Positions 14,714-57,426 of a stretch of DNA of 64,000 nucleotides are shown one piece after another. The translations under genes and the position numbers were made by a program. Each line of letters starts with the position of its first letter. Within the stretch, counting starts at the first letter, position 1. This DNA is from an uncultured Candidatus Saccharibacteria bacterium (GTDB lineage Bacteria; Patescibacteriota; UBA1384; DTJR01). The DNA lies in contig CAZIOI010000001.1 of assembly GCA_964540855.1 (NCBI GenBank), positions 7,081-71,080 on the forward strand, read 5' to 3'. The notes under the pieces were generated by a model, which saw only the letters and a program-made list of their open reading frames with translations, had not been told where the DNA came from and did not search any database.

Positions 14714-16204
14714 CTATTTAACCAATGGATCGCTGGAGGAATCAAAAGCCTGTGCGATGTAGTCAATGGTCGGTAAAAAGCTCTTGGTGAAGTTCTCGAC
14801 GCCGTTTATGTCCGTAACATAGCCATACCACGCAGGCATAACAAATCGCTCCTCGATGAATCTAGAGGCCCAATCTGACTCAACACCCATAGCAATCGCA
14901 TAAGACAAATATTTTTCAAACAAATATTTGTCGCTGGGACCTATAAGGGCTTTTTCGGTAAGATAATTTTTAAACTTCAACCATTTATTTCTATATTCAA
15001 TTCCACGCGGGGATAAAGATGTAATACTTGGTGAAAGATTAACAATAAGAATGCCAAAAATAACTAGCGATACCCAAAATAACAGAACAAATTTTGGGTC
15101 TGCCGCAAACAACGCGGAAATAAGATAACCTAAAAGACCAATATAAAACACCACTATGCCAGTCATCCTGTAGCGCAGATGAGTCCTCGCCGGCGCATCG
15201 GAAAAATATCCTTTAGTTCTTCCTTCGCCGTATATTTCCAAATATGACAGAGCAATTTTTCGGGAAAATAAGTGCCTCGCCGCTCTGGTTTCCACGTCAA
15301 AAGACCCTACCGCTTTTTGTTTAGGTAAAAAAATCTTGTCCATAAGAACTTCCTCAAAAATCCTGAGGTTCTTCTGTTTCGGATCAAATATCTTTTTGAA
15401 TATTACAAAATCATCTCCTCTGTTATAAATTTCTATACAATCGCGTTGTGCCAAATCAACCAATGTTGCCATTATTGATCTCGGTCCGACCTTTCCATCA
15501 ATTAAGGCACCAACCACCGCCGGAGCTAGATCTTCCGGAGGTTTTTTCGACTTGCCTGCTGGCGCTTGTCCGAGAAAGCCGATTCTAGTTCTGCGAATTA
15601 TTCTGACCAAAATCGCTAAGGCGATAAGCGGTAAAATAAGACTAATCGCTATCCAGTAAGTCGCACTTATAGCTCCGACAGTCTCTTCAATCCTTTTATC
15701 CGTGCTTAAACTGATATAGCCCTTGGGAAACGCGGCTGTGATCGTAACGGTCGCACTGGAACCAATGTTTTTCGCTTGGTAAATTATCCTGTCGCCATAA
15801 AAGGTCGCGCCTATGGGATCGGCACCGTGCACTGCGATAATTTCCGGCTCACGATCAACTTTGGTTATATTTTTGGGCAAAATCAGAACTACCTCTAGTT
15901 CTGAATAGAGTTCATTTGGCTTATCCAGAATAATGTATCTTAGTTCGTCGTAGTCCTTATAGGGCTTAATGCTTTCGGAAATTTTTTTTTCGTCAATTTC
16001 GATAGAACCATCGGATTGCATATCCATCTCGAGATAAAATCGATTAGAGTTGGTACTCATATTTACATTATCTGCAATGTTGGCGATTGCCCTATCGGCG
16101 CTAACGGTCGGCGACAGAAAACTTCCATATTTGTTTGTAAAAAAAACAAATAGTCCCAGAAACAAAAATAGTACAAGCTTATTTTTATAAATTCCTATTA
16201 CCAT
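14714..16204 (-). CDS. DUF2207-like predicted membrane protein
   Basis: N-terminal signal or TM segment, an extracytoplasmic domain, a TM segment, a cytoplasmic domain, then two C-terminal TMs. This matches the DUF2207 architecture. It overlaps holA by 20 nt. Confidence 0.5.
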   Translation of the reverse strand: MVIGIYKNKLVLFLFLGLFVFFTNKYGSFLSPTVSADRAIANIADNVNMSTNSNRFYLEMDMQSDGSIEIDEKKISESIKPYKDYDELRYIILDKPNELYSELEVVLILPKNITKVDREPEIIAVHGADPIGATFYGDRIIYQAKNIGSSATVTITAAFPKGYISLSTDKRIEETVGAISATYWIAISLILPLIALAILVRIIRRTRIGFLGQAPAGKSKKPPEDLAPAVVGALIDGKVGPRSIMATLVDLAQRDCIEIYNRGDDFVIFKKIFDPKQKNLRIFEEVLMDKIFLPKQKAVGSFDVETRAARHLFSRKIALSYLEIYGEGRTKGYFSDAPARTHLRYRMTGIVVFYIGLLGYLISALFAADPKFVLLFWVSLVIFGILIVNLSPSITSLSPRGIEYRNKWLKFKNYLTEKALIGPSDKYLFEKYLSYAIAMGVESDWASRFIEERFVMPAWYGYVTDINGVENFTKSFLPTIDYIAQAFDSSSDPLVK

Positions 16205-17138
16205 CTATCCCCAAAACAAAATCTTTAAGCGCATCGCCTGGATCTATTTTACCACTCTTAATAGACTCATCAATCGATACGAGCCGAGAAAAGATTATAG
16301 ACAAATCCTTAAAGTTTATATTTCTCGTATATCCGATCACTTTCTGAATCTGAAAAGGCTTTAGGCCAAGCAGCCTTGACATCTCAAAACTGCTTTTTAC
16401 GGTTTGGCTCACCTCCATCACATAGGCAATTGTCCTAAACTGATAATTTATCAGGCCTAATATTTTAAGCGGCGGCTCATTCGAGTCCAATAAAGCCTGC
16501 AAATGGTCAAGCGCAACTTTGGAATTTTTTGCCAGAAGCGCATCGACAAATTTGAACGAATTACCTAAAACATTTTTGCTGACAATCTGTTCAATATCAT
16601 CAATTACAATTTCCCGATTCGGCTTATAATCGGCAAGCTTGTGGATCTCGCTATCAAGTCGCCAAAGATCATCCATACAATATTCGACTAGTTGAACCGC
16701 TGCTTCGCTGGAGATGCTATTGCCAAGTAACTTCAGTTGGGAGCGAACAAAGCTGATCTGTTGAGATTGGGAAAAAATGTCAAAATGTTTTGCGTTTTTT
16801 TCCTTGGAAAGTCTCTTGAAAAGCTTGAGTCTCTTGTCCGGCTCCCCTTCCTGAGTAAAGACAACCACAGTTGATTCCGGCAAGCCGTCGAGATTACCTG
16901 CAATTTGCTCAAGCGTATCTTTATTTTTTTGATTAAAAATATTTTTGATAACGATTAATCTCGATGAAGCTAAAAGCGGCATGGCCTGAACCTGCCTGGC
17001 AAACTCTTGGGCCACCAAGTCCTGACCATCGATTGAAATAAAATTCAGATCGCCGACATTTTTGTAGTATCGCTGCTTCAACTGATTGACCGCTTTTTGG
17101 ATCATAAAGACATTGGGCCCGTAGAAAAAAATAAGCAT
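16185..17138 (-). CDS. holA: DNA polymerase III delta subunit
   Basis: 317 aa. The N-terminus MLIFFYGPNVFMIQKAV…QRYY… is typical of HolA (FYGEE…). The size and helical domain III pattern also fit. Confidence 0.7.
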   Translation of the reverse strand: MLIFFYGPNVFMIQKAVNQLKQRYYKNVGDLNFISIDGQDLVAQEFARQVQAMPLLASSRLIVIKNIFNQKNKDTLEQIAGNLDGLPESTVVVFTQEGEPDKRLKLFKRLSKEKNAKHFDIFSQSQQISFVRSQLKLLGNSISSEAAVQLVEYCMDDLWRLDSEIHKLADYKPNREIVIDDIEQIVSKNVLGNSFKFVDALLAKNSKVALDHLQALLDSNEPPLKILGLINYQFRTIAYVMEVSQTVKSSFEMSRLLGLKPFQIQKVIGYTRNINFKDLSIIFSRLVSIDESIKSGKIDPGDALKDFVLGIDGNRNL

Positions 17139-17140
17139 GG

Positions 17141-18061
17141 CTAAAACAAACTTTCTTGTTGGTTGAGTGACCTCTGACTTTTGGGCATGCGTTTTATAAG
17201 TGAAAAAAATCTATATTTTTGCAAAAATTTTTCGGCGACAGCGCGGTCAAAATCGTGAAGCCTGGCGTCTTTGAGCAAAAAATCGATCTCAACGTCGGTT
17301 TTGATAGTCGCAAGCTTCTTTGATAAAAACGCCATATCTTTATGCTCCATCAGAAGTTGTCTTGTTCTCAGCTTGATCGTTTCGCTTTTCGCCTCATCAT
17401 CCAGAGCATGATAAATTCCCTCAATATCGGTAAACCGATTTATAAGATCAATTGCAGTTTTGGGTCCGATACCTTTGACGCCCGGAATATTATCGGAACT
17501 GTCGCCCGAAAGTGCCTTGTAATCAACAACTTGCGCCGGCGTTATGGAAAGTTTGCCCATAACTGCCGATGAATCATAAATAGTTTCTTTTATTTTGCCC
17601 ATCGCAGGCATAGCAACTTTGGTTCGAGAATCGACTAATTGCAGAGTGTCTTGGTCGCCAGTCACAATAATTACTTCGCCCTCGCCAAGGTCGCCGTTAA
17701 CTTTTTTGGCAAGCGTGCCGATAATATCGTCCGCCTCATAGCCCTCTTTTGTCAAAAGCGGTATTTCCATAGCGCGAACAAAATCGTGAACATCTTCGAT
17801 TTGATCATAAAACTCTTGCGGAGGCTTAACACGCTTGGCTTTGTATTCGTCAAAAAGATCATCTCTAAAAGTCGGGCCTTTGATATCAAAAGCAACCGCC
17901 AAATATTCCGGTTTATGTTTTTCTATGGTTGAAAATAAGATTGAAACAAACCCGTAAATCGCGTTGACAAGTCTTCCTGCGACCTCAAAACGCGGCATCG
18001 CGTGGTAGGAGCGATGCAAAATGGCATTTCCATCAATTAAAACAAATGTATTTTTTTTCAT
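17141..18061 (-). CDS. 5'-3' exonuclease / flap endonuclease (Pol I N-terminal-domain-like)
   Basis: LIDGNAILHRSYHA, YKAKR and GDSSDNIPGVKGIGPKTA (helix-3-turn-helix) motifs. The likely start is Met16 of the track ORF (ATG at 18061..18059, MKKNTFVLIDG…). The track ORF extends to 18106. Confidence 0.85.
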   Translation of the reverse strand: MKKNTFVLIDGNAILHRSYHAMPRFEVAGRLVNAIYGFVSILFSTIEKHKPEYLAVAFDIKGPTFRDDLFDEYKAKRVKPPQEFYDQIEDVHDFVRAMEIPLLTKEGYEADDIIGTLAKKVNGDLGEGEVIIVTGDQDTLQLVDSRTKVAMPAMGKIKETIYDSSAVMGKLSITPAQVVDYKALSGDSSDNIPGVKGIGPKTAIDLINRFTDIEGIYHALDDEAKSETIKLRTRQLLMEHKDMAFLSKKLATIKTDVEIDFLLKDARLHDFDRAVAEKFLQKYRFFSLIKRMPKSQRSLNQQESLF

Positions 18062-18188
18062 AATCAAAGACAAAAAAATCATATTCGCACGCACGCTAAA
18101 TGTCAAAATACCCTTTACACGCGACTAAGTTTGCGATAATATTTCGTGATCGCTTTCAAGCGATGAACCTGAAAAAGGAGGATCATCG

Positions 18189-18389
18189 ATGAACCCGCGG
18201 CACATGTGCAGGAGGACAAGCCTGAGCCCCCAGGCAAGAGCTATGCGGCATGTTGTGGTTCTCGTCAAGCGGCATGGTATCAAGCCCCAAGAGGCCTGGC
18301 GCCAGGCTATCGCTTACTTCTCCCCCAAGTTTAAGGGAGACCTCGCGCAGGCATTGACTGCCGATCAAGGCCCCGCCGAGCCGCCCTAG
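18189..18389 (+). CDS. Small GC-rich ORF (66 aa) inside GC-rich island A; hypothetical
   Basis: ATG at 18189 preceded by a perfect AAAGGAGG SD with a 7-nt spacer. The ORF ends inside a strong GC hairpin. Composition is R/A/P-rich. The local GC content is far above the flanks. Confidence 0.35.
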   Translation: MNPRHMCRRTSLSPQARAMRHVVVLVKRHGIKPQEAWRQAIAYFSPKFKGDLAQALTADQGPAEPP

Positions 18390-18413
18390 ACGGGCGAGCT
18401 CGGCGGGGCCTTT
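18369..18413 (+). terminator. GC-rich hairpin (13-bp stem) followed by TTT
   Basis: GGCCCCGCCGAGC…GCTCGGCGGGGCC followed by TTTCCCC. Sits at the end of the small GC-rich ORF, immediately downstream of the pheT stop. Confidence 0.4.
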
Positions 18414-18419
18414 CCCCGT

Positions 18420-20681
18420 TTAGTCCCTTAATTTCGCATTAAATTTTTTTGAAATTGCCTCGATAATTTTTGTAATCTGTCCATCAGCCTCAGCATCCGA
18501 CAAGGTTTTTTCGACATCTTGAAAATAGATATGAAAAGCTACAGACTTTTTGTTTTCGCCGAACTTGTCCGAAACAAACTCATCAAACAATTCTACCAAC
18601 AAAACATTATTGCTCGTTTGATAAATCGCCTCGGCTACAGCTTCATTTTTATGATCTGTGTCCATAACAAACGCCAAATCTCGGCTGATTGGCGGAAATT
18701 TTGAAACTTCGCGATACTTAATCGTTCGATCAATCGTCTTAAAATCCGCGTCTGCCTTATTGTTTCGCATCGCGCTAACCAGCAAAGCACAATCTAGCTC
18801 CGCAACAAAAACGCTTGATTTTTTGACTTTGTAGCGTGTCAAATCATCGCGCGAAAATTCTTTAATTTTAAAGTCTTTCTCGGGTAAGCCTGTTTTTTCA
18901 CAGATATTTTCGACACATTTTTCGATTTCTGTCCTAGCGGATTTTCCGGATGAGAGGATCGCAATATGCGTCTTTTCTTCGGACGTTGAAAATACATTAC
19001 CGAATTCAAAAATCAAAATCGGGTCAAAGATAGGATTTTTAGCGACTGCTCTGACCAGCCCCACCGCCAAAGAATTTCTCATATATTTGTTTTCTTTCTG
19101 AATGGGATTTGCAACTTCGAGCAAGTCCTCCTGTTTTAATCCAAGTGACTTAGCATCGGCTTCGGACAAAAATGGATATGAAAACACCTCACAAAAACCA
19201 TTGTCAACCAAGACATCCTTGAGACATTCCTTGAAATAAAAATCCGAATTTTTTGGCGCCGATAAAGCGGGCATTTCAACCATCGGAATATTTTCAAAAC
19301 CCATCATTCTGGCTATTTCCTCAGCCAAGTCCTGCCAAACAAAGACATCATGGCGATAGCTCGGCGGCACGGCCATTTCTGCTTTGATAACAAATCCAAG
19401 ACTTATAAGATATTGATCAATCTTTTCGCGCTCAAGTGCTGTACCCAAAAGTTCGTTTATTTTTTCGTATTCAATTTTTACAAAATCATTTTTTTGCTCG
19501 ACTGCGATATCAATGGTTTCATCGATTATTTCGCCTCCGGCGATATCGCAAATCATCTTGGCTGCTTTACGCATCGCCTCAACCGTCAGCTCGGCGTCAA
19601 TACCGCGCTCAAATCTATAGCTTGCATCGCTGACCAACCGCAACATTTTTGCGGTTCGACGGACTGATTTGCGTTCAAACACGGCCGATTCCAAAATAAT
19701 CTCTTTCGTCTCATTTGATATTGCACTGTCCGCGCCACCCATCACTCCGGCGACCGCCAAAGCTTTTTTGCTGTCGGCGATCACAAGCATTTGCTGGTCC
19801 AGGGTTCGCAAAGCGCCGTCAATAGTTGTCAGCTTCTCGCCGTCATTTGCCGTGCGGACAATGATTTTATCTTCAACAATTTTAGCTTTATCAAATGCGT
19901 GAAGGGGCTGACCCAAATCCATCATTATATAATTTGTAATATCGACGACATTGTTAATCGGCTTCAAGCCAACGGCTACCAGACGCTTTGCCAGCCAGTC
20001 AGGCGAAGGAGCAATTTTAACCGAACGAATAACCGTGCCGGCATATGCAAAGCAATTTTGGGGCGATTGAATTTCGATCTTTAATTTGTTTGTTGGCTTG
20101 TTTTTTGCGTCATCTGAAAAACCGGACGCGAACTTTATCTTTTTGCCAGTCAAGGCCGCAACCTCTCGAGCCACGCCAAGATGCGAGAGGCAATCTCCTC
20201 TATTTGGAGTGATCTCGAGTTCAAAAACAGAATCCGAATTCAAATATTTGCATAGCGATTCTCCAAGCGCATATTCGTCGGGTAGAATATAAATTCCCTC
20301 GTGACTGTCGCCTAAGCCCAGTTCCCGTTCGCTGCAAAGCATACCGAAAGATTTTTCGCCTCTGATTTGTGCCTCTTGAATTTCAATATCACCCAACTTG
20401 GCGCCAATCGTCGCTAACGGCACAATTTGACCCGGTTGGATGTTTGGGGCGCCACAGACAATAGCATATTCTTTTTGACCATCGGTTACGCGAGCCAATC
20501 TCAATCTATCGGCATTCGGGTGCGGTTTTACCTCGAGAATTTTTGCGACAATTACCCGCGGATCGAGACCTTTTGTGACATTTTCGACCAGCGTCCCCGA
20601 AAAAGTAAGCAGATCGTCCAGTTCTTGATCCGTCTGATTTATATCGACATAGTCTTTTAGCCAACTTTTTAAAATTTTCAT
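18420..20681 (-). CDS. pheT: Phenylalanine--tRNA ligase beta subunit
   Basis: 753 aa. The N-terminus MKILKSWLKDYVDI… and the B3/4, B5 and C-terminal anticodon-binding-like domains match PheT. Directly downstream of pheS. Confidence 0.95.
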   Translation of the reverse strand: MKILKSWLKDYVDINQTDQELDDLLTFSGTLVENVTKGLDPRVIVAKILEVKPHPNADRLRLARVTDGQKEYAIVCGAPNIQPGQIVPLATIGAKLGDIEIQEAQIRGEKSFGMLCSERELGLGDSHEGIYILPDEYALGESLCKYLNSDSVFELEITPNRGDCLSHLGVAREVAALTGKKIKFASGFSDDAKNKPTNKLKIEIQSPQNCFAYAGTVIRSVKIAPSPDWLAKRLVAVGLKPINNVVDITNYIMMDLGQPLHAFDKAKIVEDKIIVRTANDGEKLTTIDGALRTLDQQMLVIADSKKALAVAGVMGGADSAISNETKEIILESAVFERKSVRRTAKMLRLVSDASYRFERGIDAELTVEAMRKAAKMICDIAGGEIIDETIDIAVEQKNDFVKIEYEKINELLGTALEREKIDQYLISLGFVIKAEMAVPPSYRHDVFVWQDLAEEIARMMGFENIPMVEMPALSAPKNSDFYFKECLKDVLVDNGFCEVFSYPFLSEADAKSLGLKQEDLLEVANPIQKENKYMRNSLAVGLVRAVAKNPIFDPILIFEFGNVFSTSEEKTHIAILSSGKSARTEIEKCVENICEKTGLPEKDFKIKEFSRDDLTRYKVKKSSVFVAELDCALLVSAMRNNKADADFKTIDRTIKYREVSKFPPISRDLAFVMDTDHKNEAVAEAIYQTSNNVLLVELFDEFVSDKFGENKKSVAFHIYFQDVEKTLSDAEADGQITKIIEAISKKFNAKLRD

Positions 20682-24934: not shown

Positions 24935-25414
24935 ATGTGCAAGCCAGAACAGATCAAGATTCCACCGGCAAGCCTCATTTACGCACTAGGCATTGCCATC
25001 GCTGTGGGTGTTTTTGTGGGGCCAATCCTACTCGCAAGACAACCAACTAGCTCCACCGAGATTGCGAGCAGGACGAGGGACATCCAGGTCGGCGCCGTAG
25101 AGGCTGAGGAAGCGCGTCCAGACCAGGCCGTTGCCGTCCTCGACGACCCCTCAGGCCTCGGTCTCTTCCAGCTCAAGCTGGAGGGAGACGATTTCGAGCA
25201 GGTTGCAACCCTTGTGATGAGCGAGGGGTGCAAGTTCCGCGGCTGTCAGATGTTAGTTGGCCACGACAGCTGCCTGGTTTACGTTTGTACAGTCGAGCGC
25301 GACGCACGACTGTACGTGGTGCCGTTGCAAGGGAAGCAGCGGTTTCCCCACAACGGACGGTGGCATTGGATGGGGATCATCGCGCTAGTGACCCCCGTCC
25401 CCACCTCCGGCTGA
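24935..25414 (+). CDS. GC-rich hypothetical ORF inside GC-rich island B (may be spurious)
   Basis: ATG at 24935 is preceded by GAGGGGG, 8 nt upstream. Contains one hydrophobic helix (LIYALGIAIAVGVFVGPILLA). A GC hairpin (GTGCCCC…GGGGCAC) follows the stop. High GC inflates ORF length, so coding status is uncertain. Confidence 0.25.
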   Translation: MCKPEQIKIPPASLIYALGIAIAVGVFVGPILLARQPTSSTEIASRTRDIQVGAVEAEEARPDQAVAVLDDPSGLGLFQLKLEGDDFEQVATLVMSEGCKFRGCQMLVGHDSCLVYVCTVERDARLYVVPLQGKQRFPHNGRWHWMGIIALVTPVPTSG

Positions 25415-25457
25415 CACCGTGCCCCGCCGACTGCACATGCGATCGGTGGGGCACCAC

Positions 25458-46390: not shown

Positions 46391-46489
46391 TATTCGAGCT
46401 TACTGCAAAAGAAGTCTTATAACAATAATTCAAAAGTAAAATTGTTAGTCAAAATTCTCCAAGTTTAGTCATTCGCGATTTGTTGTGCC

Positions 46490-46612
46490 CCGCGTAGCCC
46501 TGCCTACCGGCAGGCAGGCTTGGCGAGGTGGGGTCAATTCCTACCCCACCTCTCGACAGTCATTCCCGCCCCATCAATTCGTGGGGTAAACTACAGCGGG
46601 AATCTTTTTTAT
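46490..46612 (+). ncRNA. Candidate small structured RNA ending in an intrinsic terminator
   Basis: GC-rich block with consecutive hairpins (CCTGCC…GGCAGG and GGTGGGG…CCCCACC). It ends with the ATTCCCGC…GCGGGAAT stem followed by CTTTTTT at 46604-46610. It is non-coding-looking and lies in a 470-bp divergent intergenic region. Confidence 0.25.
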
Positions 46613-46656
46613 TCAGGCTTCGCTTGAAAGATATTTGCAAGCTAAAGCTTGCTTTT

Positions 46657-46775
46657 ATTTTGCGGTGGTCAGGGGGCTTAATTGCGAAGCAGCCCCCTAG
46701 ACCCCCGCACCCCCTTACCCCTGCACGCTTCATACCAAGGTGTCGCTTTGCGACGATATCTTTTAAATTTTTTCT
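46657..46775 (+). ncRNA. Candidate small structured RNA with SRP-RNA (ffs) domain-IV-like motif
   Basis: Long imperfect GC hairpin at 46661-46709 (UGCGG-U-GGUC-AGGGGGCU…AGCCCCCU-A-GACC-CCGCA). It contains GGUCAGG…GAAGCAGCC, which resembles the conserved GGUCAGG / GGAAGCAGCC elements of bacterial 4.5S/SRP RNA. It ends with the GTCGC-TTT-GCGAC hairpin plus a T-rich tract. Confidence 0.3.
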
Positions 46776-46879
46776 TTATCATTTTAATCTTTAACTTTTG
46801 ATATTTAATTTTGCGTTAACTTGTTCCCGTGTTTTTTAATTCGCATTATTTGGTAGAATTGTAATAGAAAAGGAGGGGT

Positions 46880-47461
46880 CTGTCGCTTTCTAACAGAGGA
46901 AAAATTATCCTTCTATTTTCCGCAGTTATAGTTGTCGGGATTATTGTTTTTGCCTATTTTTACCTTAATCGCGAGGGCTCAAATACTACGACAAACGGGA
47001 CATCTCCCGCAGCCGAAGAGAGTAAAATCGTACTTCAGAGGATTTACGAAAGTCCCCAAGCTTTAAGTTCCGAGACAATCACTCCAAGTAGCGGCGCAAC
47101 CCAGATAGCACCAACCACCAGCCCGACAACAACAGCAGCCAAGCCGACTGCGACCCCGGGGATTTTTGATTATACTGCGAGAGATACCGCCACAGCCGAT
47201 AAAGACACTGTCAAACTGGTTGATGAAATTAAAAAAGAAATCGGCGATAAAGACGTCTGCCAATTGGCAAATATTTCCAATAGCTGGTCAAACCCTGTAG
47301 AGAAAACTGTATGCGGGACAATGAAGTTTGCGGCTGAAAAAGTTTTGGTTCCGATGCTAGAATTTTCCTGTTTCATGTATGCAGGAGCGATGAATCTAAA
47401 TTATGACGCAGATATAACGGCAAATTTTAAGGACAATCAATGCAATTTACAAGACAGATAG
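46880..47461 (+). CDS. Small signal-anchored secreted protein with Thr/Pro-rich linker and 4-Cys C-terminal domain; no in-frame ATG start
   Basis: Open frame from 46868 to 47461. AAAGGAGGGG at 46869-46878 lies just upstream. The only nearby in-frame starts are non-canonical (CTG 46880, ATT 46904). It encodes …IILLFSAVIVVGIIVFAYFYL (anchor), a T/P/A-rich linker and …DVCQLANISNSW…CGTMKF…FSCFMY…NQCNLQDR. The stop overlaps the start of the next gene. Confidence 0.45.
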   Translation: MSLSNRGKIILLFSAVIVVGIIVFAYFYLNREGSNTTTNGTSPAAEESKIVLQRIYESPQALSSETITPSSGATQIAPTTSPTTTAAKPTATPGIFDYTARDTATADKDTVKLVDEIKKEIGDKDVCQLANISNSWSNPVEKTVCGTMKFAAEKVLVPMLEFSCFMYAGAMNLNYDADITANFKDNQCNLQDR

Positions 47462-50433
47462 TCAAAGCATTTATTACTGTAATTATAGTTATAATTGTGG
47501 CATTGGCCGCGCCGAACTTTTTTGGCAAAGACGACAAAATAAATGAGAGTGTATTCCACAAAGAAGATATGCATCTTTCAATTGCATACAGCAGAGCATC
47601 TGCGTACCAATATGGCGACACAACAAATGTAACAAAAGTGTTGGCAAAGCAGTCCGGTAAAAATGGGGAATGGGTCTTTACGATATACAAAATAGCTCTA
47701 TCGTTTGTAAATATTATTGTGGTTTGTTTTTTAATATTTGTCGCTCTTGCCAATATCCTACAGTATGACATTAAAAATTATGCGATAAAGGCTGTCTTGC
47801 CAAAGCTCGTAGGATCAGTCATAGCAGCCAATTTGTCAATGACTATTTTTGTCTTTGCGTCAAAGATCATCGACTCTATGATGGGAATATCAATTTTTAA
47901 ACCGCTCGGGTGGGATTGGTTTTCTTTTATTATTGGGGGGCACGGTTGGCAAATTGGCACAGCCGGAACAATAGGGGTACTCATTGGTCTTTTAGCAAAA
48001 ATTTTTTTGGGTGTCTTCGGGTGGGTTAGCGTGGTCATAGTAGTTATAGGCTTGCTAGCGGCGCTTCTTCTGGCACTATTTGTGTCATTGATCCTTGCGT
48101 TCAGACCGTACGTCGTTCTACTGTGCGTCGCAGTTGCCCCAATCGCGATTGTTTGCTACGCGCTCCCGCAAACCTCAAAAGTATTCAGTAGATGGGCCAG
48201 GGTCGCTGTTGTATGGCTTACCCTGCCAATCCTGGCTAATTTCATCCTACGAGTCGTCATGTTAATCCCCTCTGGAACAAAAATGACTTTGACTTTGGGG
48301 GAATTTGGTCCTGTCAGCGGTATCGTAGGCTTTTTAGTTCCGACAATAGTTAGAGGCGCAGCTCTCCTATTTGTCGCCAGGCTCCCATTTAAGCTTGGGG
48401 ATGATGTGAGCGGATTAATTTCCACATATGGTCGCAAACTCGGGCGTGGCGCCATGGTCGCCAGCGGCCAACTCGCTTATTGGTCTGATCGAAAACAAAA
48501 ACAGAAAGAAGTCGAGGCCGATAATAGAAGCAGGGGGAACACACGCAAAGCATATGAAAGCGGAAGTATTGGTGAAATAGCAAATTTTTATATGGAAAGA
48601 GAAAAGGAAAAAAGAGCAGAAGCATTGAAAAAGCAGGCTGATGGTAAAACTCTAACCAGAGATGAATATGCATATACCATGCTAACTGATCCGGATATCC
48701 GAGCAAGCGCAGAACAAAAAGCGCGAAGCGGTTTGGCAGCTCAAGTCCAATATACGAATCCTAGCGATTACAATGACGCGCTAGTAGAAATGCAAAGCGA
48801 GCAAACCGCACTTCAAAACAAGATTGCAACAAACAAAGCGTTGAATGAAAGAGAGAAAATATTGAGAAAACAAGGCTTCCACACTTTGTCATTAGGCGAC
48901 CTTGAGAAGAAGGCAAAGGAAGAAGTCGCACAACGAAACCGAGAAACAATTTCCGATGAAATTAGCAGAAGAGATGTGGCTGCACAAAAGGAAACCGGAA
49001 CACACAGGGCTTTGGAATATGTCAAAAAAAGCAATTTGTATGGTGTTATGAGCACAATCAAAGAAAACCTTGACTATGACGAAGCAGAGCGCGGTAAAAC
49101 ATTTGCAAAATATTCGTGGTTTGCTGAACAAACCAGAGGTCGATATGCACAAGGAAAATATATGTCGGCTGTTGTCAAGGAAGATCTCGCTGATCTTGGA
49201 ACATCGGAAGAAATGGCGGAATATTTGAAGCCGGCTTTCCAGGCTTTCTACGAGAATGTAGCCAGCGCGATGGGGCAGACAACCGTCACTGATGCTGTAA
49301 AGCTGGAAGCTAACGCTATGTTAAGAAGATACAGGACCCAAGTTAAGGGGCTTAAAGATTATATGCAACACCCATATTTTGATAATATAAAACCCAATAC
49401 AGCGGCAAACATTGTTCAGGGCGATTATGCCCTCAATCAACAATTGGCCAGAGAAGCGCGCGGACGTAACCGACCCGGTCAAGATAGAATTATCGAGGAA
49501 CGCAAACGTGAAATATTTGGCTCCGGCTCGCCAACTACACCGGAGCAAAAACGTATCACCGCGCTGGAACAGCAAAACCAGAGGAGAAGCTTGCTGTTAT
49601 TACAACAGATAGCGAGGCAAACTACCGGTGTCACGCAGAAACAAGCATTTGCCAGGGCAATTGAGTTAGCAGACGAGATGGGCCATGGTCTGGGCGTCGA
49701 TAGTATTGAAGATCTGCCTAGAAGTCACTCCGAATTAAAGGATGTTTCTCACGAGAATATCTATATGACAAAAGTTGCCCTCGCCGCAAGATCAGAAGAA
49801 GGAAGGCGCGTTGCTGCACTTACAGAGAGAATCAGCGGCCAGGAAGATGTCGATGCAATCATGCAATCGCATTATGTTCTGGGTCAAGCCGCAACTAATC
49901 CAAGCAGCGTTTCGCCGGAACTAATCTCTAGAGCAAAAACTGTTATTGGTCAAAAAATGAACATTAACCCCTCTTTGGTTGATGTGGCCAACAGCAATAC
50001 ACTTCTAAAAGCAGCCGAAGCCGCGACCGTTTCTGACCTAGCGGGTCAAAGAACAAAGATTACTGACCCAATAGAGGTTCAATACAGGATTGGCACGCAG
50101 GTCATGAGAGATCGTGCCGTCACCGATACAGAGGCTATTTTACAAGACATCAGGACACAAATCGCAAGTGGCATACAGTCAACGGACATTGATCTTGGAT
50201 CTATTGACACACAGGTTCGCGCCCTCACAGATCCTCACTTGCAACTAGAATTCGGATCGGCATGGACCGGTCAAACAGTAGCTCTAAAAGAACAGGTTAT
50301 TGCCGAGACCTCCAAGCAGTTGCAACAAGCTGTAGCATCCGCTGACTCTGCCCTAGTCGCAGAAGCTGAGTCGCAAGTTCCGATAATGATCTCAGAAACA
50401 TTTAAAAAAATAGCTTCCCAACCAAGGAGTTAG
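47440..50433 (+). CDS. Giant polytopic membrane protein (997 aa): signal peptide, ~6 TM, ~620-aa charged coiled-coil C-terminal domain; VirB6/TrbL-like topology; paralog of 51790..54639 and 11760..14705
   Basis: The signal peptide MQFTRQIVKAFITVIIVIIVALAAPNFFG is followed by several hydrophobic helices. The motif …NYAIKAVLPKLVGSVIAAN… is shared with the 949-aa paralog (…NTYAIKKALPSIIIAIIGG…). The C-terminal half is E/K/Q/R/A-rich. Confidence 0.6.
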   Translation: MQFTRQIVKAFITVIIVIIVALAAPNFFGKDDKINESVFHKEDMHLSIAYSRASAYQYGDTTNVTKVLAKQSGKNGEWVFTIYKIALSFVNIIVVCFLIFVALANILQYDIKNYAIKAVLPKLVGSVIAANLSMTIFVFASKIIDSMMGISIFKPLGWDWFSFIIGGHGWQIGTAGTIGVLIGLLAKIFLGVFGWVSVVIVVIGLLAALLLALFVSLILAFRPYVVLLCVAVAPIAIVCYALPQTSKVFSRWARVAVVWLTLPILANFILRVVMLIPSGTKMTLTLGEFGPVSGIVGFLVPTIVRGAALLFVARLPFKLGDDVSGLISTYGRKLGRGAMVASGQLAYWSDRKQKQKEVEADNRSRGNTRKAYESGSIGEIANFYMEREKEKRAEALKKQADGKTLTRDEYAYTMLTDPDIRASAEQKARSGLAAQVQYTNPSDYNDALVEMQSEQTALQNKIATNKALNEREKILRKQGFHTLSLGDLEKKAKEEVAQRNRETISDEISRRDVAAQKETGTHRALEYVKKSNLYGVMSTIKENLDYDEAERGKTFAKYSWFAEQTRGRYAQGKYMSAVVKEDLADLGTSEEMAEYLKPAFQAFYENVASAMGQTTVTDAVKLEANAMLRRYRTQVKGLKDYMQHPYFDNIKPNTAANIVQGDYALNQQLAREARGRNRPGQDRIIEERKREIFGSGSPTTPEQKRITALEQQNQRRSLLLLQQIARQTTGVTQKQAFARAIELADEMGHGLGVDSIEDLPRSHSELKDVSHENIYMTKVALAARSEEGRRVAALTERISGQEDVDAIMQSHYVLGQAATNPSSVSPELISRAKTVIGQKMNINPSLVDVANSNTLLKAAEAATVSDLAGQRTKITDPIEVQYRIGTQVMRDRAVTDTEAILQDIRTQIASGIQSTDIDLGSIDTQVRALTDPHLQLEFGSAWTGQTVALKEQVIAETSKQLQQAVASADSALVAEAESQVPIMISETFKKIASQPRS

Positions 50434-50434
50434 T

Positions 50435-51793
50435 TTGGAAACAGAAGAGCAAACAACAGACTCCACAGAACAACAGCCGGAAGCAGATTACGGAGTCGGT
50501 CGAAGTGTCGCCGACAGAGTCAGCGAATCAAATGATACTTTTCGTGCCGCCGACAAATTATCCGGTGGTCGTATTGGCAGCGCTACTAAAAAAGCTGGAG
50601 AGGCTTTTGACAAGACAGGATTGGGACAAGGTATTAACAAAGCCCGTCAAGCCGCCAGCAGTGCCAAGAGTGCCGCAACCAAGCAAGTTACCGAGGCAGG
50701 CAAAAAAGTCGCCGGCAAAGCAGTACAAAAAGGCGCCGAGCTTGCTGCCAAAGCAGGAATTTCTGCTGCTACCGGCGCCGCAACAGCTGGCGTCTCCACT
50801 GCTGTTCAGGCAGGATTGGAAGGCATTCAGAAAGCCGCTCAAATAAGCGACAAAATTAGAAAAGCTGTTAAAAGCGCTACCGGCGGACTCATCGATCCGG
50901 ACATTTTTGGTGATCTAAAAGACAAATTAAAGGAGTATTGGAAACAAAATAAATGGAGAATTATCGGCGGCTCGTGTCTTGTTTTCGCTCTTTTGGCGAT
51001 CGCTCCATTTATTATCATGATCGTGATGATTTCAAAATTCTTGTTTTCCGACAATACGGAGCCGACTAATAAGGCGATAATAAACAGCATCAGCTCCCTC
51101 TCATCATCACAAAGGCTATTTTTCACAGGTTCCGGTGATCTGGACGCTATAAAAAACGGCGAGATATCCCAAAACTCGCTCAAGATGATCAATTATTTAG
51201 CCAAAAAACATCAGAGGATAGAGATCAATTACTCGCCCAAGACCGACGAGACATCGACCGGCGCCAACGAACCTTATGAGTTTGATATTGTTTCGGTCGA
51301 TGAGATTCGCTGCAGCGTAAACGGACAAAAAGTCGGATCCGTGCCGATTTATCTTAACTCCAATTACGATTTCGTCTCAGCCGCCAAAAACATCCCCTCA
51401 AACGCCATCTGCGCCAGCGGCTATTACCCGAACATCGAAGCGCAAATAAAATCGGCTTATTTCGACCAGTTTTCGCCGGGCGAATTTCTCGCCGGCGAGA
51501 TCGCAACTCGCGGCAAAATGGTCGCGCAAGAAAAGCTGGCGGAGATCACAGAGGATATATTTAAAGCAAATTCAAACCTTAAAATCAATAGCAGTTCTGA
51601 TGATAGCGTTTTGCCGGCAGCTATCACCATAGACGATAAATACGCTACAATAAATCAGAAGGACAATTCGGCCGGCGTTTTGGTGGTGATGAAAGATAAA
51701 ATTGCGCACTACTATCCAACCGCCGATTCATCAAGCACGGGTGTTCTTAAGTCGACCGGACAAAAATATGGAATACATATAAGTTTCTTATGA
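50435..51793 (+). CDS. Bitopic membrane protein (452 aa): acidic N-terminus, Ala/Lys-rich repeats, single TM, ~240-aa extracytoplasmic domain
   Basis: The N-terminal ~185 aa are low-complexity (KAGEAF…KQVTEAGKKVAGKAVQKGAELAAKAG…). One TM segment (WRIIGGSCLVFALLAIAPFIIMIVMISKFLF). The C-terminal domain has 3 Cys. The start is adjacent to the previous stop, and the stop overlaps the next start (ATGA). Confidence 0.55.
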   Translation: METEEQTTDSTEQQPEADYGVGRSVADRVSESNDTFRAADKLSGGRIGSATKKAGEAFDKTGLGQGINKARQAASSAKSAATKQVTEAGKKVAGKAVQKGAELAAKAGISAATGAATAGVSTAVQAGLEGIQKAAQISDKIRKAVKSATGGLIDPDIFGDLKDKLKEYWKQNKWRIIGGSCLVFALLAIAPFIIMIVMISKFLFSDNTEPTNKAIINSISSLSSSQRLFFTGSGDLDAIKNGEISQNSLKMINYLAKKHQRIEINYSPKTDETSTGANEPYEFDIVSVDEIRCSVNGQKVGSVPIYLNSNYDFVSAAKNIPSNAICASGYYPNIEAQIKSAYFDQFSPGEFLAGEIATRGKMVAQEKLAEITEDIFKANSNLKINSSSDDSVLPAAITIDDKYATINQKDNSAGVLVVMKDKIAHYYPTADSSSTGVLKSTGQKYGIHISFL

Positions 51794-54639
51794 TCAGATT
51801 GATCAAATTTACAGTTATAGTTACGGCAGCTATCGGACTGCTTGTTTTGCCTGCGACAGCCAAGGCAATTCCTTCCGATATAAATTACAAATGGGATAGC
51901 AATGAGTCTCCATTGACCGATGGAGTGAGTGGCACGACCACCAGTGAACAGATATGCCAAGATTTGTTCGCCGCGGATAGCACAAATATTTTTAAAGAAG
52001 TGGTTTGCTCTTTTACTCGACTTGCCGCTTTGTCAATTGCCGACCTCGCCACAGACATTACCTGCTCAATCCAGCAGGTAGGTAACGGCACAAATTATAA
52101 AAGCACTACTTTCTCAAGTAGCTCGGGCAAATGTGAGGAGTCGCCAACAAACCCCTTGGGCGATAAATCCCAAAAAACCGGTTTCTACAGCGACGAACTT
52201 GCGAATTCGACAAGCGCCCTGACTGACTCCCTTTCACCGAGTCAGTCAGCTACTCCATCAGCGGCTTACAAAGGCTTCACAATCGCCAGAAATATTATGG
52301 GGCTTATGGCCGTAGTAGCACTATTTGTCTTTGCCTTTGCTAATATTTTGCACATCGAAGTTAATACATATGCGATCAAAAAGGCTCTCCCATCAATCAT
52401 TATCGCCATTATCGGCGGTGCGCTTTCGATTTATATTGTGTTTTTGCTGTCCAGATTTGTCGATTTCACGTACAGGCTCAATATCTTTTCGCCTTATCAG
52501 GCCTACCATCCAATGCAAAATATCTTCGGCGGATATTTTAATCTCGGGTCGGTTGACCAACTCAAAGATGATAGTGTCAAACTGGTATTCGATGTGGGAT
52601 CAAGCCTGATCGGCGCAAGCGGCGTCAGTTTTTTTGCCGGCGTCTTGGGTTCAATTATGCTGGTTATCCCCGCTCTAGCGACATTTGCCTTCGAATACGT
52701 TCTTTCGCTCAGAGCCTTCGCCGTTCAGATTTTGACAATAATAGCTCCGATCGCCTTCGCTTGCTTGATTTTGCCTCAAACACAAGCGTTTTTCAGAAAA
52801 TGGTGGTCATATTTGTTGATTGCAATCTTTTTTGCACCACTGGCGAACTTTGTATTTTTTATTTTAAACCTTTTTGGATCTTCTTCGAGCGATGTAACAT
52901 CTCTGATGGCACTCTGGTTTTTAAAAACCGTTGCTATTATCTTTTTGATCCGCTTCCCCTTCACGGTCGAAGCAGACACGAAAAAAATTCTTGCAGCCGT
53001 TTCGAAAACAAGCTTTGGCGCGGCGCTTGGACTTAACAGGATTGGCGGCACCGATGTGAAACCACAGAACAAAGAGCAACAGGTTAAATTTGCCAGTATC
53101 GACAAGATAAAAGATATTTCAAAAAATAATCCAAGGGTACTCGCCCCCGCCATAAGGACAAATCAAGCCGGTCAGCTAAGATCGGCCGCGATCGGCAAGC
53201 AAGGCAGACAAGCGATCGCGCCCGCCGGACTGAATAGCTCCATCGAAAAGGCCGTCTCGCAAGCTGCTCAAGACAATGCAAGCCGTTCCGATAATCTGCT
53301 GGTCAAATCTTCGGCAAGTATTGCCAACAGAGCATTCAGAGCCGTTGTGGATCAATCCGATCTTAAACTATGGCGAGATACGAGGCTCATAGAACAGCTC
53401 AAAAATCATAACGGGCAAGTCTTGGACGAACAGGGTGCTGCTATGCGCGCCGATTCGGCGCGCAAGTTGATGAGATTATCGCAGGTCGTGGAAAACGACA
53501 AAATCGCTAACCCCGAGGCGCTAAAAGTGTTGGCGACAAAGGGTGTTCTCGATAATATCCCTATGTCGATAATAAAAAAAGCGATCGATGACGGAATTCT
53601 GCAAAAAAGCGATCTTGCGACAACCTTTGGAGACAACACTAGCAAGGTTATAGAATATATCGATAGCAGCAAACAAACCAGGCAGGGCTTTCTAACCGAT
53701 ACCCAAGCAAAAACATTGATGACTCGAGACCAGAGTGATTACGCAACCGGCTTCAGGGATTTAACTAAGCTTTTCACTGACACGATCAAAGACCCTTCAA
53801 TCTTTCCTCCCCCACCTCCGCCAGTTATAAAAAACATCATTTCACAGATGAGATCGACCGACTCTGATATTTTTGAAAAAAACGGGATGTATTACCTCAA
53901 CCGTCTTGCCCAAATTCAAAAAGCTTCGACAAAAGATATTAGCTCCACCCTTACAAAAACCGGCGTCCAGAATCAGACCGCTTTGGCAATCGCCAAGAAC
54001 CCACGAATCGACTTTTCTGATGCCAAAAAATACACCGACAAGGGTAAGCTAGACTCAAACAGCCTTTCGTTACTCAGAGAAGGATTTTTAAATAGAGACT
54101 TATCCGATAATCTCATCGGCAGTATATCCGCCCTGATGAAAGAGCAAAAAACACTGATTGGCAAAGGGATAACTCAAAAAATTTCCGAGAGCATAAGCAA
54201 AAATCCCGATGGACTTAAACTGTCGGATATCGGCGAAAATATGCGAAAAGTCATTCAGGGGCTACAAAAACCGGCAACGCCGCAGGATATTCAGAAGCTT
54301 GCGGGAGAAGTCGATAAATTTTATCCCGGTGCCGCCCTTAAATCCAGTCTGACCTTAAGCCATGATGACATCCAAGACACATCCAAAAAAGCCGCTGGCA
54401 TATTGGAAACTGTCGAAACTCTAATCCGCTCGGGTATGGATGAAAAATCAATCAACAAAAATCCACAGAAAGCTGTAAATGAAATAGAAAAATCCGTGGC
54501 ACAGGAGATCGAACAAGCGGCTTCCGGCCAAATCGCCAAAGACAGTGAATTTGATACAAAATTATCTAACATATCCAAAAACACGCCGTCTAATACCGGC
54601 TCAAGCATTGCAGACGCTATAACCGCCGGAGCCAAATAA
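51790..54639 (+). CDS. Giant polytopic membrane protein (949 aa): signal peptide, ~140-aa Cys-containing ectodomain, ~6 TM, ~580-aa hydrophilic C-terminal domain; paralog of 47440..50433
   Basis: Signal peptide MIRLIKFTVIVTAAIGLLVLPATAKA. Ectodomain with 5 Cys. The TM block is homologous to the 997-aa protein (…CLILPQTQAFFRKWWSYLL…). The long C-terminus is K/D/S/Q-rich and includes a PPPPPV tract. Confidence 0.6.
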   Translation: MIRLIKFTVIVTAAIGLLVLPATAKAIPSDINYKWDSNESPLTDGVSGTTTSEQICQDLFAADSTNIFKEVVCSFTRLAALSIADLATDITCSIQQVGNGTNYKSTTFSSSSGKCEESPTNPLGDKSQKTGFYSDELANSTSALTDSLSPSQSATPSAAYKGFTIARNIMGLMAVVALFVFAFANILHIEVNTYAIKKALPSIIIAIIGGALSIYIVFLLSRFVDFTYRLNIFSPYQAYHPMQNIFGGYFNLGSVDQLKDDSVKLVFDVGSSLIGASGVSFFAGVLGSIMLVIPALATFAFEYVLSLRAFAVQILTIIAPIAFACLILPQTQAFFRKWWSYLLIAIFFAPLANFVFFILNLFGSSSSDVTSLMALWFLKTVAIIFLIRFPFTVEADTKKILAAVSKTSFGAALGLNRIGGTDVKPQNKEQQVKFASIDKIKDISKNNPRVLAPAIRTNQAGQLRSAAIGKQGRQAIAPAGLNSSIEKAVSQAAQDNASRSDNLLVKSSASIANRAFRAVVDQSDLKLWRDTRLIEQLKNHNGQVLDEQGAAMRADSARKLMRLSQVVENDKIANPEALKVLATKGVLDNIPMSIIKKAIDDGILQKSDLATTFGDNTSKVIEYIDSSKQTRQGFLTDTQAKTLMTRDQSDYATGFRDLTKLFTDTIKDPSIFPPPPPPVIKNIISQMRSTDSDIFEKNGMYYLNRLAQIQKASTKDISSTLTKTGVQNQTALAIAKNPRIDFSDAKKYTDKGKLDSNSLSLLREGFLNRDLSDNLIGSISALMKEQKTLIGKGITQKISESISKNPDGLKLSDIGENMRKVIQGLQKPATPQDIQKLAGEVDKFYPGAALKSSLTLSHDDIQDTSKKAAGILETVETLIRSGMDEKSINKNPQKAVNEIEKSVAQEIEQAASGQIAKDSEFDTKLSNISKNTPSNTGSSIADAITAGAK

Positions 54640-54640
54640 T

Positions 54641-56098
54641 ATGACAGAACAAGAACAATCAGGACAAACTCCGCCGCCGGAACAAGAAAATCCTCCCGAG
54701 GCAACGCCTACGGTTGAGCCCGAAGAAGCTGAGAACCTGACGCAAGAAAACCAAGAAGGGCTGGGTGATCAAAACGAAAGCGAGGTAACGCTAGCGCTTC
54801 GCGAAGCGTTTTTATCCAAAGCGGAACAAGATACCGATATGGAGGGGCTTGCTGGTGCAATGGATTCCTTTATCGACAAAGGTGGTTTCTCTCCAGGTGA
54901 GCTGGACTCTCTGGTGCGAGATGTCTTGGAAGAAAAATCTGCAGTCCTAGGCATAGACAAAGCGCAAGCTGAAACTCTGGCAGGGGAAATTATCTCGATT
55001 GAAGAAGCACTCATTACTCCCTTAAAATCCGAGTTGCCTGACACAAAAGCAATTTCATCTGTCAGAGAATCTTTGTATCAATTAGCATTAAAAAATATAA
55101 TCTCCGGAGAAAAAGTCTGTAGCTTGGTTACATCGATAAAGTTTAGAGAGAATCCGGGGGAAGAAGTTGGTGAACATGCCCAAGCGCTCCACGGTATGTC
55201 GTGCGTATATTTGGTCAATGGTAATTCGCGAGAAATCTATATCTACGGTCCATTTATAAAAGAGAGTAAAACCGCCCAGAGAACCATCATTAGCCACGAA
55301 ATCGGTCACCTTTTGGCGGAATCGACGAATCTTTTTGATTTTGAGCAATATGCAAAGTTTAAGGAATTTGCTCAAAATCCGACTGATGAAAATATTGCTC
55401 TTATGCAAGCGGAAAATCCGCAATTTGCGTATCTTCTACAGGTCATCAAAGAACCAACCGCTCATCTGCCGATGTGGAACCAATATATTAGGGGAAGACT
55501 CAAAAAACTCGAGACTATTTCGCAGCCCGATCAGTTGGCAAAAGAAAGAGTTGCTGTTGCAAAGGAGCTGGTCGCCGAGATGATCGGATCATACCTCTGC
55601 GCCGGTGAAAGCAACGAGGCTTATTTTATAGATCAAATAAAATATTCAAAACCCGAGGATGTTATCGCTTACATTAAGGGTTTGTGCGGCTGTGATCAGG
55701 ATGATCAATTCGTAGCATTTTGCCGACAAAACGGCGTTGATCTTGCCGCCTTAAGAGACGGTAGTTCATCCGAAATCATCAGAAAGCTCTCAGAAATCCC
55801 GCAATTGCAGATAGTATTTAAGTCGAGCGCTTCTTGGCGCGAGATGCTTGCAAACAGTCTATCGGACAGAGGCACGAGACTGGAAACTAACGGAAAGACG
55901 GATGCTATTGGGGAAGATTATGATGATGACGGATTTATAGGAACAGATGGGGAAAGTCTGGCTCAATCCTATACTATGGCGCAGCGCGCCGGCGGCACTC
56001 AAGCCGGAGAAAAATCGGAAAACGCTTTTGAAAAAGTGTGGGATTTTCTGACAGGAAACGCCGCAAGAACACCCGGTGCGACTAAGAAGGCCGCCTAG
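54641..56098 (+). CDS. Acidic soluble protein (485 aa) with HEIGH (HExxH) zinc-metallopeptidase-like motif, ImmA/IrrE-like context
   Basis: No TM segment. The N-terminus is E/P/Q-rich. The motif …QRTIISHEIGHLLAEST… fits the R-x-[FT]-x3-HE-x-GH-LL pattern of ImmA/IrrE (COG2856) zincins. The start is 2 nt after the previous stop. Confidence 0.5.
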   Translation: MTEQEQSGQTPPPEQENPPEATPTVEPEEAENLTQENQEGLGDQNESEVTLALREAFLSKAEQDTDMEGLAGAMDSFIDKGGFSPGELDSLVRDVLEEKSAVLGIDKAQAETLAGEIISIEEALITPLKSELPDTKAISSVRESLYQLALKNIISGEKVCSLVTSIKFRENPGEEVGEHAQALHGMSCVYLVNGNSREIYIYGPFIKESKTAQRTIISHEIGHLLAESTNLFDFEQYAKFKEFAQNPTDENIALMQAENPQFAYLLQVIKEPTAHLPMWNQYIRGRLKKLETISQPDQLAKERVAVAKELVAEMIGSYLCAGESNEAYFIDQIKYSKPEDVIAYIKGLCGCDQDDQFVAFCRQNGVDLAALRDGSSSEIIRKLSEIPQLQIVFKSSASWREMLANSLSDRGTRLETNGKTDAIGEDYDDDGFIGTDGESLAQSYTMAQRAGGTQAGEKSENAFEKVWDFLTGNAARTPGATKKAA

Positions 56099-57331: not shown

Positions 57332-57426
57332 CGATGCTTAGTTTACCAAATCAACAGGCAAAAAAAAGAGGGTCGATACGACATTACACGCTCGACCCGT
57401 GAGCCCCCCTACTGCTTCGCGCGGGC

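Follow-up and report, generated by a model that had tools for sequence, protein, structure and literature searches.

The DNA analysed here, hereafter the window, is a stretch of 64,000 nucleotides from an uncultured Candidatus Saccharibacteria bacterium, which carries between a 5'-3' exonuclease gene and pheT a short segment of raised GC content that we term island A. This segment harbors a minigene, that is, a 66-codon open reading frame (ORF) encoding a putative protein A on the strand opposite to both neighbors. We consider it rather probable that island A is a real resident small-protein gene, of which the window holds a divergent allele acquired by exchange from an unsampled lineage. Indeed, a small GC-rich ORF lies on the opposite strand next to pheT in 18/18 related loci, and the family of 88-97-amino acid (aa) proteins encoded at this location, hereafter the slot, is protein-coding and under purifying selection. 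The window gene matches this slot family in its promoter, leader, hairpin and location.

Anatomy and composition of island A

The island and its immediate setting comprise the following features:

17141-18061, minus strand: 5'-3' exonuclease gene, flanking anchor gene (Pfam PF02739/PF01367)
18078-18106, minus strand: promoter-like site of the exonuclease gene (TTGACA, 17-nucleotide (nt) spacer, TATGAT; 11/12 consensus positions), directed away from the minigene promoter
18114-18142, plus strand: promoter-like site of the minigene (TTTACA, 17-nt spacer, TAATAT)
18148-18169, plus strand: conserved leader GATCGCTTTCAAGCGATGAACC with a small stem-loop (TCGC/GCGA), delimited by alignments
18170-18367, plus strand: window-specific body of 198 nt, made up of the Shine-Dalgarno sequence (SD; 18174-18181) and codons 1-60, without DNA similarity to relatives
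18189-18389, plus strand: 66-codon ORF (protein A, P0001), with ATG at 18189 and TAG stop at 18387-18389
18367-18412, no strand assigned: 20-pair GC hairpin whose loop contains the TAG stop, at a distance of 7 nt from the stop codon of pheT
18420-20681, minus strand: pheT, flanking anchor gene (Pfam B3_4, B5, tRNA_bind, FDX-ACB)

Positions 18144-18419 have ~60% GC in a genome of 43% GC, and the ordinary intergenic spacers of the window have 31-38%. In 100-nt windows, GC amounts to 0.57-0.65 across 18150-18449 as compared with 0.32-0.47 in the 250 nt on each side, and with a peak of 0.667 in 150-nt windows (window mean 0.433, standard deviation 0.060) the island ranks among the top three peaks in the 64 kb. 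Codon usage also sets the ORF apart, its GC content being 0.63/0.49/0.73 at the three codon positions; the last of these values (GC3) stands above those of all 42 long ORFs of the window (mean 0.445, standard deviation 0.040, maximum 0.553). These profiles bear out the GC elevation over the flanks that had been claimed in an earlier reading of this DNA from its letters alone, hereafter the original prediction. Its naming of both neighbors is likewise supported by their Pfam matches, and the orientation that it had given to the ORF is correct, the exonuclease gene and pheT both lying on the minus strand and the ORF on the plus strand. The perfect SD and the 66-codon ORF that it described are present as well (AAAGGAGG at 18174-18181, with a 7-nt gap to the ATG), and so are the hairpin and the ensuing TTT, the former being stronger than had been stated (~20 pairs vs 13 bp). 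The ORF is, furthermore, called as a gene in both NCBI and Logan records.

So sharp a change of composition within a metagenome-assembled genome might betray an assembly chimera, as the original prediction had itself suggested, or contamination from a high-GC organism. This option is, however, extremely improbable. A contig of 4484 bp in the Logan assembly (SRR8925806) is base-identical to positions 15938-20421 and thereby covers both junctions, and the same architecture was assembled independently in the 18 loci, from many samples and by many assemblers. Besides, the breakpoints coincide exactly with functional boundaries.

As predicted from these signals, the minigene would be transcribed from its own sigma-70-type promoter, arranged back to back with that of the exonuclease gene. 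In an alignment of six lineages, the exonuclease hexamers TTGACA and TATGAT are invariant and separated by a variable spacer, the minigene -35 element CCCTTTACA is invariant too, and the minigene -10 hexamer reads TAATAT in 5/6 lineages and TAGTAT in L190. The leader consensus over the six lineages, GATCGCTTT(C/T)AAGCGA, is again invariant. Judging by the position of the -10 hexamer, the minigene transcript would open with this conserved 5' stem-loop leader, and its translation would start from the perfect SD.

Two copies of the 9-nt string CGATGAACC are present, at 18161 and 18187. The first of them opens a 9-codon upstream ORF (ATG at 18163), the TGA stop of which shares bases with the main start codon in an ATGA, and positions 18161-18170 are able to pair with 18179-18188, partly covering the SD. 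This arrangement may serve translational coupling or control, or may be due to chance.

At its 3' side, the minigene would end in the conserved GC hairpin abutting the pheT stop codon. The hairpin consists of 15 perfect pairs (18367-18381 with 18398-18412) and 5 inner pairs with one bulge, and folds with an energy of -46.7 kcal/mol (z = -6.3). In sequence, the window hairpin matches those of L166, L170 and L190 (L numbers denote related loci) at ~85-90% identity, its structure is kept in six alleles with 4 pairs changed on both sides, and in the alleles of L167, L168 and L180 the equivalent hairpin is followed by TTTTTT or TTTTTTT. Probably it acts as the terminator of the minigene and, being 7 nt away from the stop codon of pheT, it is likely to stop the converging transcript of that gene as well. 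The ORF of each allele runs through the 5' arm of the hairpin and finds its stop codon in the loop, so that the encoded proteins carry tails rich in G, P and A. Hairpins of the form GGCCCCGCC...GGCGGGGCC encode GPAEPP in the window and GPAGPP in L166, L170 and L190, the diverged hairpin of L167 and L168 (GGACCCCC...GGGGGC) encodes GPPDPPN, and in the distant relatives L180 and L183 the tail is QGPANH or QGPADQ.

Another option is that island A is a GC-rich structured non-coding RNA, which could be either a gene for a native RNA or part of the pheT 3' untranslated region with a regulatory function. Structural RNAs are typically GC-rich in AT-rich genomes, and the entire intergenic region folds better than shuffled sequences on both strands (z = -5.6 and -5.8). 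This folding excess is, however, entirely due to the hairpin; devoid of it, the remaining 217-nt body folds nearly as its shuffles do (z = -1.07 and -0.62). Rfam returned no match at gathering score in the whole 64-kb window and, at E up to 10, miRNA-precursor-like matches to the bare hairpin only, far below threshold. Neither a tRNA nor a tmRNA was found at the island (ARAGORN) or elsewhere in the 64 kb. Relatives, on the other hand, retain ORFs with a ratio of nonsynonymous to synonymous substitution rates (dN/dS) of 0.23 instead of RNA covariation. This reading, which the original prediction had left as an option, is therefore very improbable.

The slot family in related genomes

Relatives were reached through the 90%-identity cluster members of the pheT and pheS proteins of the window and, from these, through their encoding contigs. 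Scans of genome and metagenome contigs with the exonuclease protein returned, among the matches listed, identities of at most 56% (50% for the genome contigs) and no gene order in common, and exact-protein look-ups of pheS and the exonuclease led to the same sample only. We thus compiled 18 loci reaching the pheT 3' end (L166-L169, L170-L175, L177, L190, L193-L195, L180, L181 and L183); the samples from which the window originates are anaerobic digesters, and the related loci derive from other anaerobic-digester metagenomes. The slot location, i.e. between pheT and the exonuclease gene, on the opposite strand and converging on pheT, holds for the window and its relatives, with the proviso that on the exonuclease side the L180 and L183 contigs end earlier and L181 offers only a partial match to the exonuclease start at its very end. 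This position is kept across lineages whose pheT proteins are merely 61-77% identical.

The slot family comprises seven distinct proteins, one allele being identical in ten contigs from different projects. Its genes have 57-65% GC and a GC3 of 0.67-0.72 in loci of 40-47% GC. The dN/dS ratio is 0.23 for L170 compared with L167 and with L168 (p = 6e-6), 0.23 for L183 vs L180 (p = 2e-4) and 0.27 for L167 vs L168. As pheT ranges between 0.07 and 0.09, the slot family evolves under weaker constraint than its neighbors. Searches of the family against Pfam and PDB gave no match, and the best hit to PHROG had E = 0.11. Intact ORFs of 66, 89 and 97 codons share their SD position and reach a stop codon within the loop of the hairpin, the alleles being mutually unalignable. 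In L180, L181 and L183, the slot gene is the second one of a GC-rich operon encoding proteins of 140 and 88 aa, with overlapping stop and start codons.

The window-specific body

The closest relative of the window, L168, shares 95% protein identity in PheT and 97% in the exonuclease, with a synonymous divergence (dS) of 0.25 in pheT. Nevertheless, their alignment at the slot is limited to the leader, up to position 18169, and to the hairpin, from position 18368. The leader is the last part in common with relatives before the replaced body, and local alignments of this body with seven relatives recovered the SD and the hairpin only. Since the body is unalignable despite near-identical flanks, divergence in place is excluded and the body was replaced. 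A second replacement is evident between L166 and L167, whose pheT genes differ by a dS of 0.01 and whose PheS proteins are identical. Here, the first 41 minigene codons are common to both loci, whereas the remainder is wholly different, from the 3' half through the hairpin to the very last codon of pheT. Of all the alleles, it is the new 3' half of L166 that comes closest to protein A (BLASTP E = 0.002, 33% identity over 49 aa).

Further comparisons suggest a weak likeness between protein A and the core of the slot family (AM..M..VV..G..P..AE...F..F). Alignment of protein A with the family profile in hhalign yielded E = 1.2e-3 at a probability of 19%, and a family hidden Markov model deprived of the hairpin-encoded tail scored protein A with 7.8 bits, a value equalled by 7 out of 5000 shuffles (p ~1.4e-3). 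A sequence alignment with the family further reveals that protein A is devoid of the family N-terminal module P(N/D)xYFxIPDPxGP. In our favoured explanation, all sequence between leader and hairpin would have been exchanged in the window by recombination with a very divergent allele of an unsampled lineage, a process that could have relied either on leader and hairpin, both conserved, or on the flanking genes. Protein A would then be a shortened allele that lacks the N-terminal module and whose resemblance to the family is faint and limited to the C-terminal core. Target-site duplications and flanking repeats were sought around the island, and only short repeats at chance level were found.

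Alternatively, the resident body may have been overwritten recently by unrelated high-GC donor DNA, the likeness to the family being then a matter of chance or of shared composition. Such a fresh, non-homologous import is compatible with the lack of DNA similarity between 18170-18367 and any relative, with a GC3 in the window ORF that is the highest among all alleles, with the missing N-terminal module (PNRYFxIPDP) and with BLASTP matches to the 97-aa alleles that reach just the hairpin-encoded tail. However, the likeness to the family is colinear and rightly placed, and both the tail-free score and the profile alignment speak for it. Moreover, the new body opens exactly with an SD at the family position and continues in frame into the conserved hairpin, and no donor was found among the proteins, phages, plasmids and viral contigs that were searched. 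We accordingly rate this import as unlikely, albeit with an appreciable chance of being right.

Protein A itself was the sole match in a word-index search of 5.8 billion proteins, and an exhaustive search of 1.8 billion representative proteins gave two matches, both to repeat proteins. We discarded the latter as homologues, for they share just a KRHGI-type motif whose 5-7 repetitions inflate the E-value. The database protein P0007, of odd architecture (367 aa, ~7 tandem HTH_23-type units), matched protein A via a repeated ILKRHGIKTRE. Kinship with HTH_23/homeodomain-like helix-turn-helix domains through P0007 was also rejected, as the whole three-helix domain is unmatched and the motif LxKRHGIKxxExW alone is common to both. 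Protein A found no match in Pfam at E up to 0.1, in PHROGs (best E = 0.34), in PADLOC (anti-phage defence), in NCBIfam or among PDB sequences. Likewise, blastn and tblastn searches of phages and plasmids gave no match to the island, IMG/VR viral contigs none to the window allele, and Foldseek comparison of the protein A AlphaFold model with PDB and BFVD none at E below 0.85.

Protein A is basic (pI 10.9), with three helices predicted at residues 14-29, 33-44 and 51-59. Its single-sequence AlphaFold model has a mean pLDDT of 72, which rises to ~90 for residues 21-40, and is confidently helical over residues 14-44. Our guess is that the minigene product is a small regulatory or partner-binding helical protein serving in an accessory role subject to fast turnover.

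The shortness of protein A allows for yet another reading, namely that the window holds the decaying remnant of a truncated, non-functional slot gene, whose ORF persists because stops are rare in GC-rich DNA and whose hairpin is kept as the terminator of pheT. The window ORF is indeed 30 residues shorter than the family and lacks the N-terminal module. In Markov simulations of 313 nt with the same composition, considering all six frames, ATG-initiated ORFs of at least 66 codons arose in 14% of the sequences, and the minus strand of the island contains further ORFs of 61 and 52 codons. In addition, a codon model trained on islands B and C, two other GC-rich segments of the window presented below, scored the ORF frame with -0.2 bits as compared with +4.0 bits for one antisense frame. 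Since ORFs of such length are not rare by chance, the ORF alone is weak evidence and it is the comparative data that carry weight. On the other hand, the perfect SD, its 7-nt spacer and the ATG all lie inside the replaced segment, and ORFs that reach 60 codons or more and are preceded by an SD-like motif arose in only 1.2% of the simulations. The promoter and leader are intact in the window, the AlphaFold model is helical as described, and a decaying local copy of the 97-aa type should align at the DNA level given the dS of the flanks, which it does not. Decay is thus a quite unlikely account of island A.

The codon-model score and the frequency of such ORFs in simulations also weigh against our favoured explanation, that is, a resident gene with an exchanged allele, and they do not stand alone. 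The U-tract of the hairpin is weak, amounting to TTT (plus strand) or TT (minus strand), and a terminator scan of the window did not call the 18367-18412 hairpin. A second copy of the window allele was found nowhere among the databases searched, which precludes an estimate of selection on it. The likeness of the window body to the slot family is weak, the match to the 97-aa alleles being confined to the hairpin-encoded tail and that to L167 not significant in BLASTP.

Origin of the high GC and other orphan genes

The GC contrast is a property of the whole slot family and not of the window genome, which makes it old. Substitutions polarised with outgroups amount to 29 GC-to-AT vs 15 AT-to-GC in the slot family, a sample whose small size (44 changes) tells against leaning on it, and to 124 vs 160 in pheT. 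By our own estimate, a sequence of 63% GC subjected to a mutation bias with an equilibrium of ~43% GC should display a ratio of ~2.3 to 1. Ancient acquisition from a GC-richer source followed by slow amelioration is most likely on these counts, whereas a force maintaining high GC fits the polarised substitutions less well. The slot family would accordingly have entered the ancestor of the clade from such a source and would still be ameliorating. Patescibacteria are, in general terms, known to receive genes horizontally and to exchange them with one another (PMC12455944).

In the original prediction, island A had been seen as a horizontally acquired mini-cassette, possibly from an actinobacterial host. 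Much of the cassette picture stands, namely a self-contained unit of SD, ORF and hairpin, a foreign-looking composition and a body that is swappable between conserved flanks. As to acquisition, the substitutions fit a decaying GC-rich import, whereas the slot being filled in all the related loci speaks against a recent import specific to the window. The actinobacterial donor finds no backing, as the 5.8 + 1.8 billion proteins contain no homologue save the two repeat-inflated motif matches, and the samples are anaerobic digesters.

Two other islands of the window resemble island A in composition:

24935-25414, plus strand: island B, flanked by tsaD and a polysaccharide deacetylase gene; its protein of 159 aa has a membrane helix at the N-terminus
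57427-57936, minus strand: island C, flanked by a class II aminoacyl-tRNA synthetase gene and rpsF; its protein has 158-169 aa

Both have ~60% GC and a 3' hairpin, lack any Pfam match and find homologues solely in sister genomes, within the same gene order. In these genomes the flanking proteins are 86-99% identical, as compared with 85% for B and 68% for C. The island C protein (68% aa identity to its L082 counterpart) shows a dN/dS of 0.33 and a dS of 0.68, close to the dS of 0.58 in the neighboring synthetase gene. Conserved gene order, together with this dN/dS and the neighbor-like dS of C, indicates that B and C are inherited protein-coding genes.

With respect to L083, the 3' 360 nt of island B (24935-25455) differ by a single base, whereas divergence elsewhere is far greater (tsaD dS of 0.16; 55% aa identity in the 5' membrane-helix part), which suggests that this 3' segment was recently exchanged between lineages. 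Island B is absent from L166, L167 and the L170 group, where tsaD and the deacetylase gene lie 1-2 nt apart, and is represented in L190 by a very divergent homologue of 155 aa. In island C (57371-57936), the TAG stop lies in the loop of a small hairpin, with a canonical terminator and its T8 downstream; the AlphaFold model of its protein is unusable (pLDDT 35).

Further GC-rich orphan genes occur in the relatives, at positions 75-967 and 6330-7015 of L180 and also in L181 and L183, with 56-60% GC in contigs of 45-47% GC. Those of the L180 group located upstream of the FemAB gene encode proteins of 136 and 122 aa which, like the 140-aa partner of the slot gene, found no match in Pfam or PHROG. 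GC-rich orphan genes thus appear to be a recurring feature of the clade. Upstream of its FemAB gene, L168 (1-2068; ERR7570002) carries unannotated genes for proteins of 417 and 396 aa, in the place of the tsaD and deacetylase gene of L166/L167 (1-1904); a local rearrangement separates these relatives, which are colinear in other respects.

Elsewhere in the window, a large surface polysaccharide cluster with glycosyltransferase, Wzy and flippase genes occupies 30.5-46.4 kb. It is followed by the longest stretch without a long ORF (46391-47439; 1049 bp, 43% GC), which directly precedes four large genes arranged as a block (47440-56098). The ortholog of one of these in L082 has a weak TrbL-like match, and the rest have no Pfam match.

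It is tempting to speculate that the clade keeps GC-rich orphan genes as a pool, each placed alone between housekeeping operons, and that lineages swap them as modules delimited by a conserved leader and a conserved hairpin. This would amount to a system of cassette exchange or hyper-recombination that operates without a recognisable integrase. Such a pool would comprise the pheT-slot family, both other islands (B and C) and, in L180, the genes for proteins of 140, 136 and 122 aa, and could possibly be linked to host or phage interaction of epibionts. We regard both the pool and this membership as a long shot, and a categorically new mechanism is not supported on present evidence.

Patescibacteria have tiny, streamlined genomes whose lineage-specific small proteins are, to our knowledge, hardly characterised at all. 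The slot indicates that some of their orphan genes are real, that is, under selection, kept in position across species and equipped with footprinted promoters and terminators. It further indicates that such genes can be GC-richer than the genome, opposite to the usual AT bias of acquired genes, and replaceable wholesale between near-identical strains. Should these small proteins be mediators of interactions between epibiont and host, or with phages, the slot could serve as a convenient marker of conflict at the strain level, and experiments on the family would be worthwhile. In practical terms, GC-rich islets in metagenome-assembled genomes of the Candidate Phyla Radiation (CPR) should not be discarded as contamination. 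On balance, we consider the locus moderately interesting for CPR genome evolution and small-protein discovery.

Comparison with known systems

Ribbon-helix-helix proteins of the CopG/Arc/ParD type come to mind because the 88-97-aa relatives display an N-terminal pattern, xYFxIPxP ... A..G.S.A..I..A, with a strand-helix-helix look. Besides, the slot gene of L180, L181 and L183, as the second gene of an overlapping operon of two (140 and 88 aa), recalls the arrangement of ribbon-helix-helix antitoxins. However, the slot family matches no Pfam or PDB profile and the window protein is devoid of the N-terminal part. Comparison in hhalign of the family profile with four ribbon-helix-helix sequences reproduced the expected register without reaching significance (E = 0.33).

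Phage morons and other autonomous accessory units are likewise made of one ORF with its own promoter and hairpin terminator, placed between conserved housekeeping genes of the opposite strand, with a base composition far from that of the host and a content that varies between close relatives. Unlike these, the minigene resides in a bacterial chromosome without phage genes nearby, the slot is filled in every relative, and promoter, leader and terminator belong to the slot, not to the insert.

Integron cassettes offer a parallel in their resident promoter and leader, their exchangeable ORF, the differing bodies that one position can host and the imperfect 3' GC hairpin with a bulged base. The slot nonetheless lacks the RYYYAAC/GTTRRRY core pair, its outer stem being AAGGCCCCGCC/GGCGGGGCCTT and the downstream GTTTAGT misfitting GTTRRRY, and its hairpin is conserved with the slot and does not travel with each cassette. 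Recombinase, integrase, transposase and reverse-transcriptase domains are absent from 20 window ORFs (1363-46390), from the flanking genes that were scanned and from the precomputed annotations of orthologous neighbors. The scanned or annotated genes cover almost the whole window, several of its large ORFs being without any Pfam match. Finally, the slot alleles look like diverged homologues, not like the unrelated genes that integron cassettes bring together.

ORFans are short, fast-evolving, compositionally atypical and lineage-restricted genes, usually AT-richer than the genome in which they reside. The slot family resembles them in being short, in having no homologues beyond a narrow clade and in evolving under weaker constraint than its neighbors. 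It departs from them in being 17-23 percentage points GC-richer and in holding a stable position across lineages.

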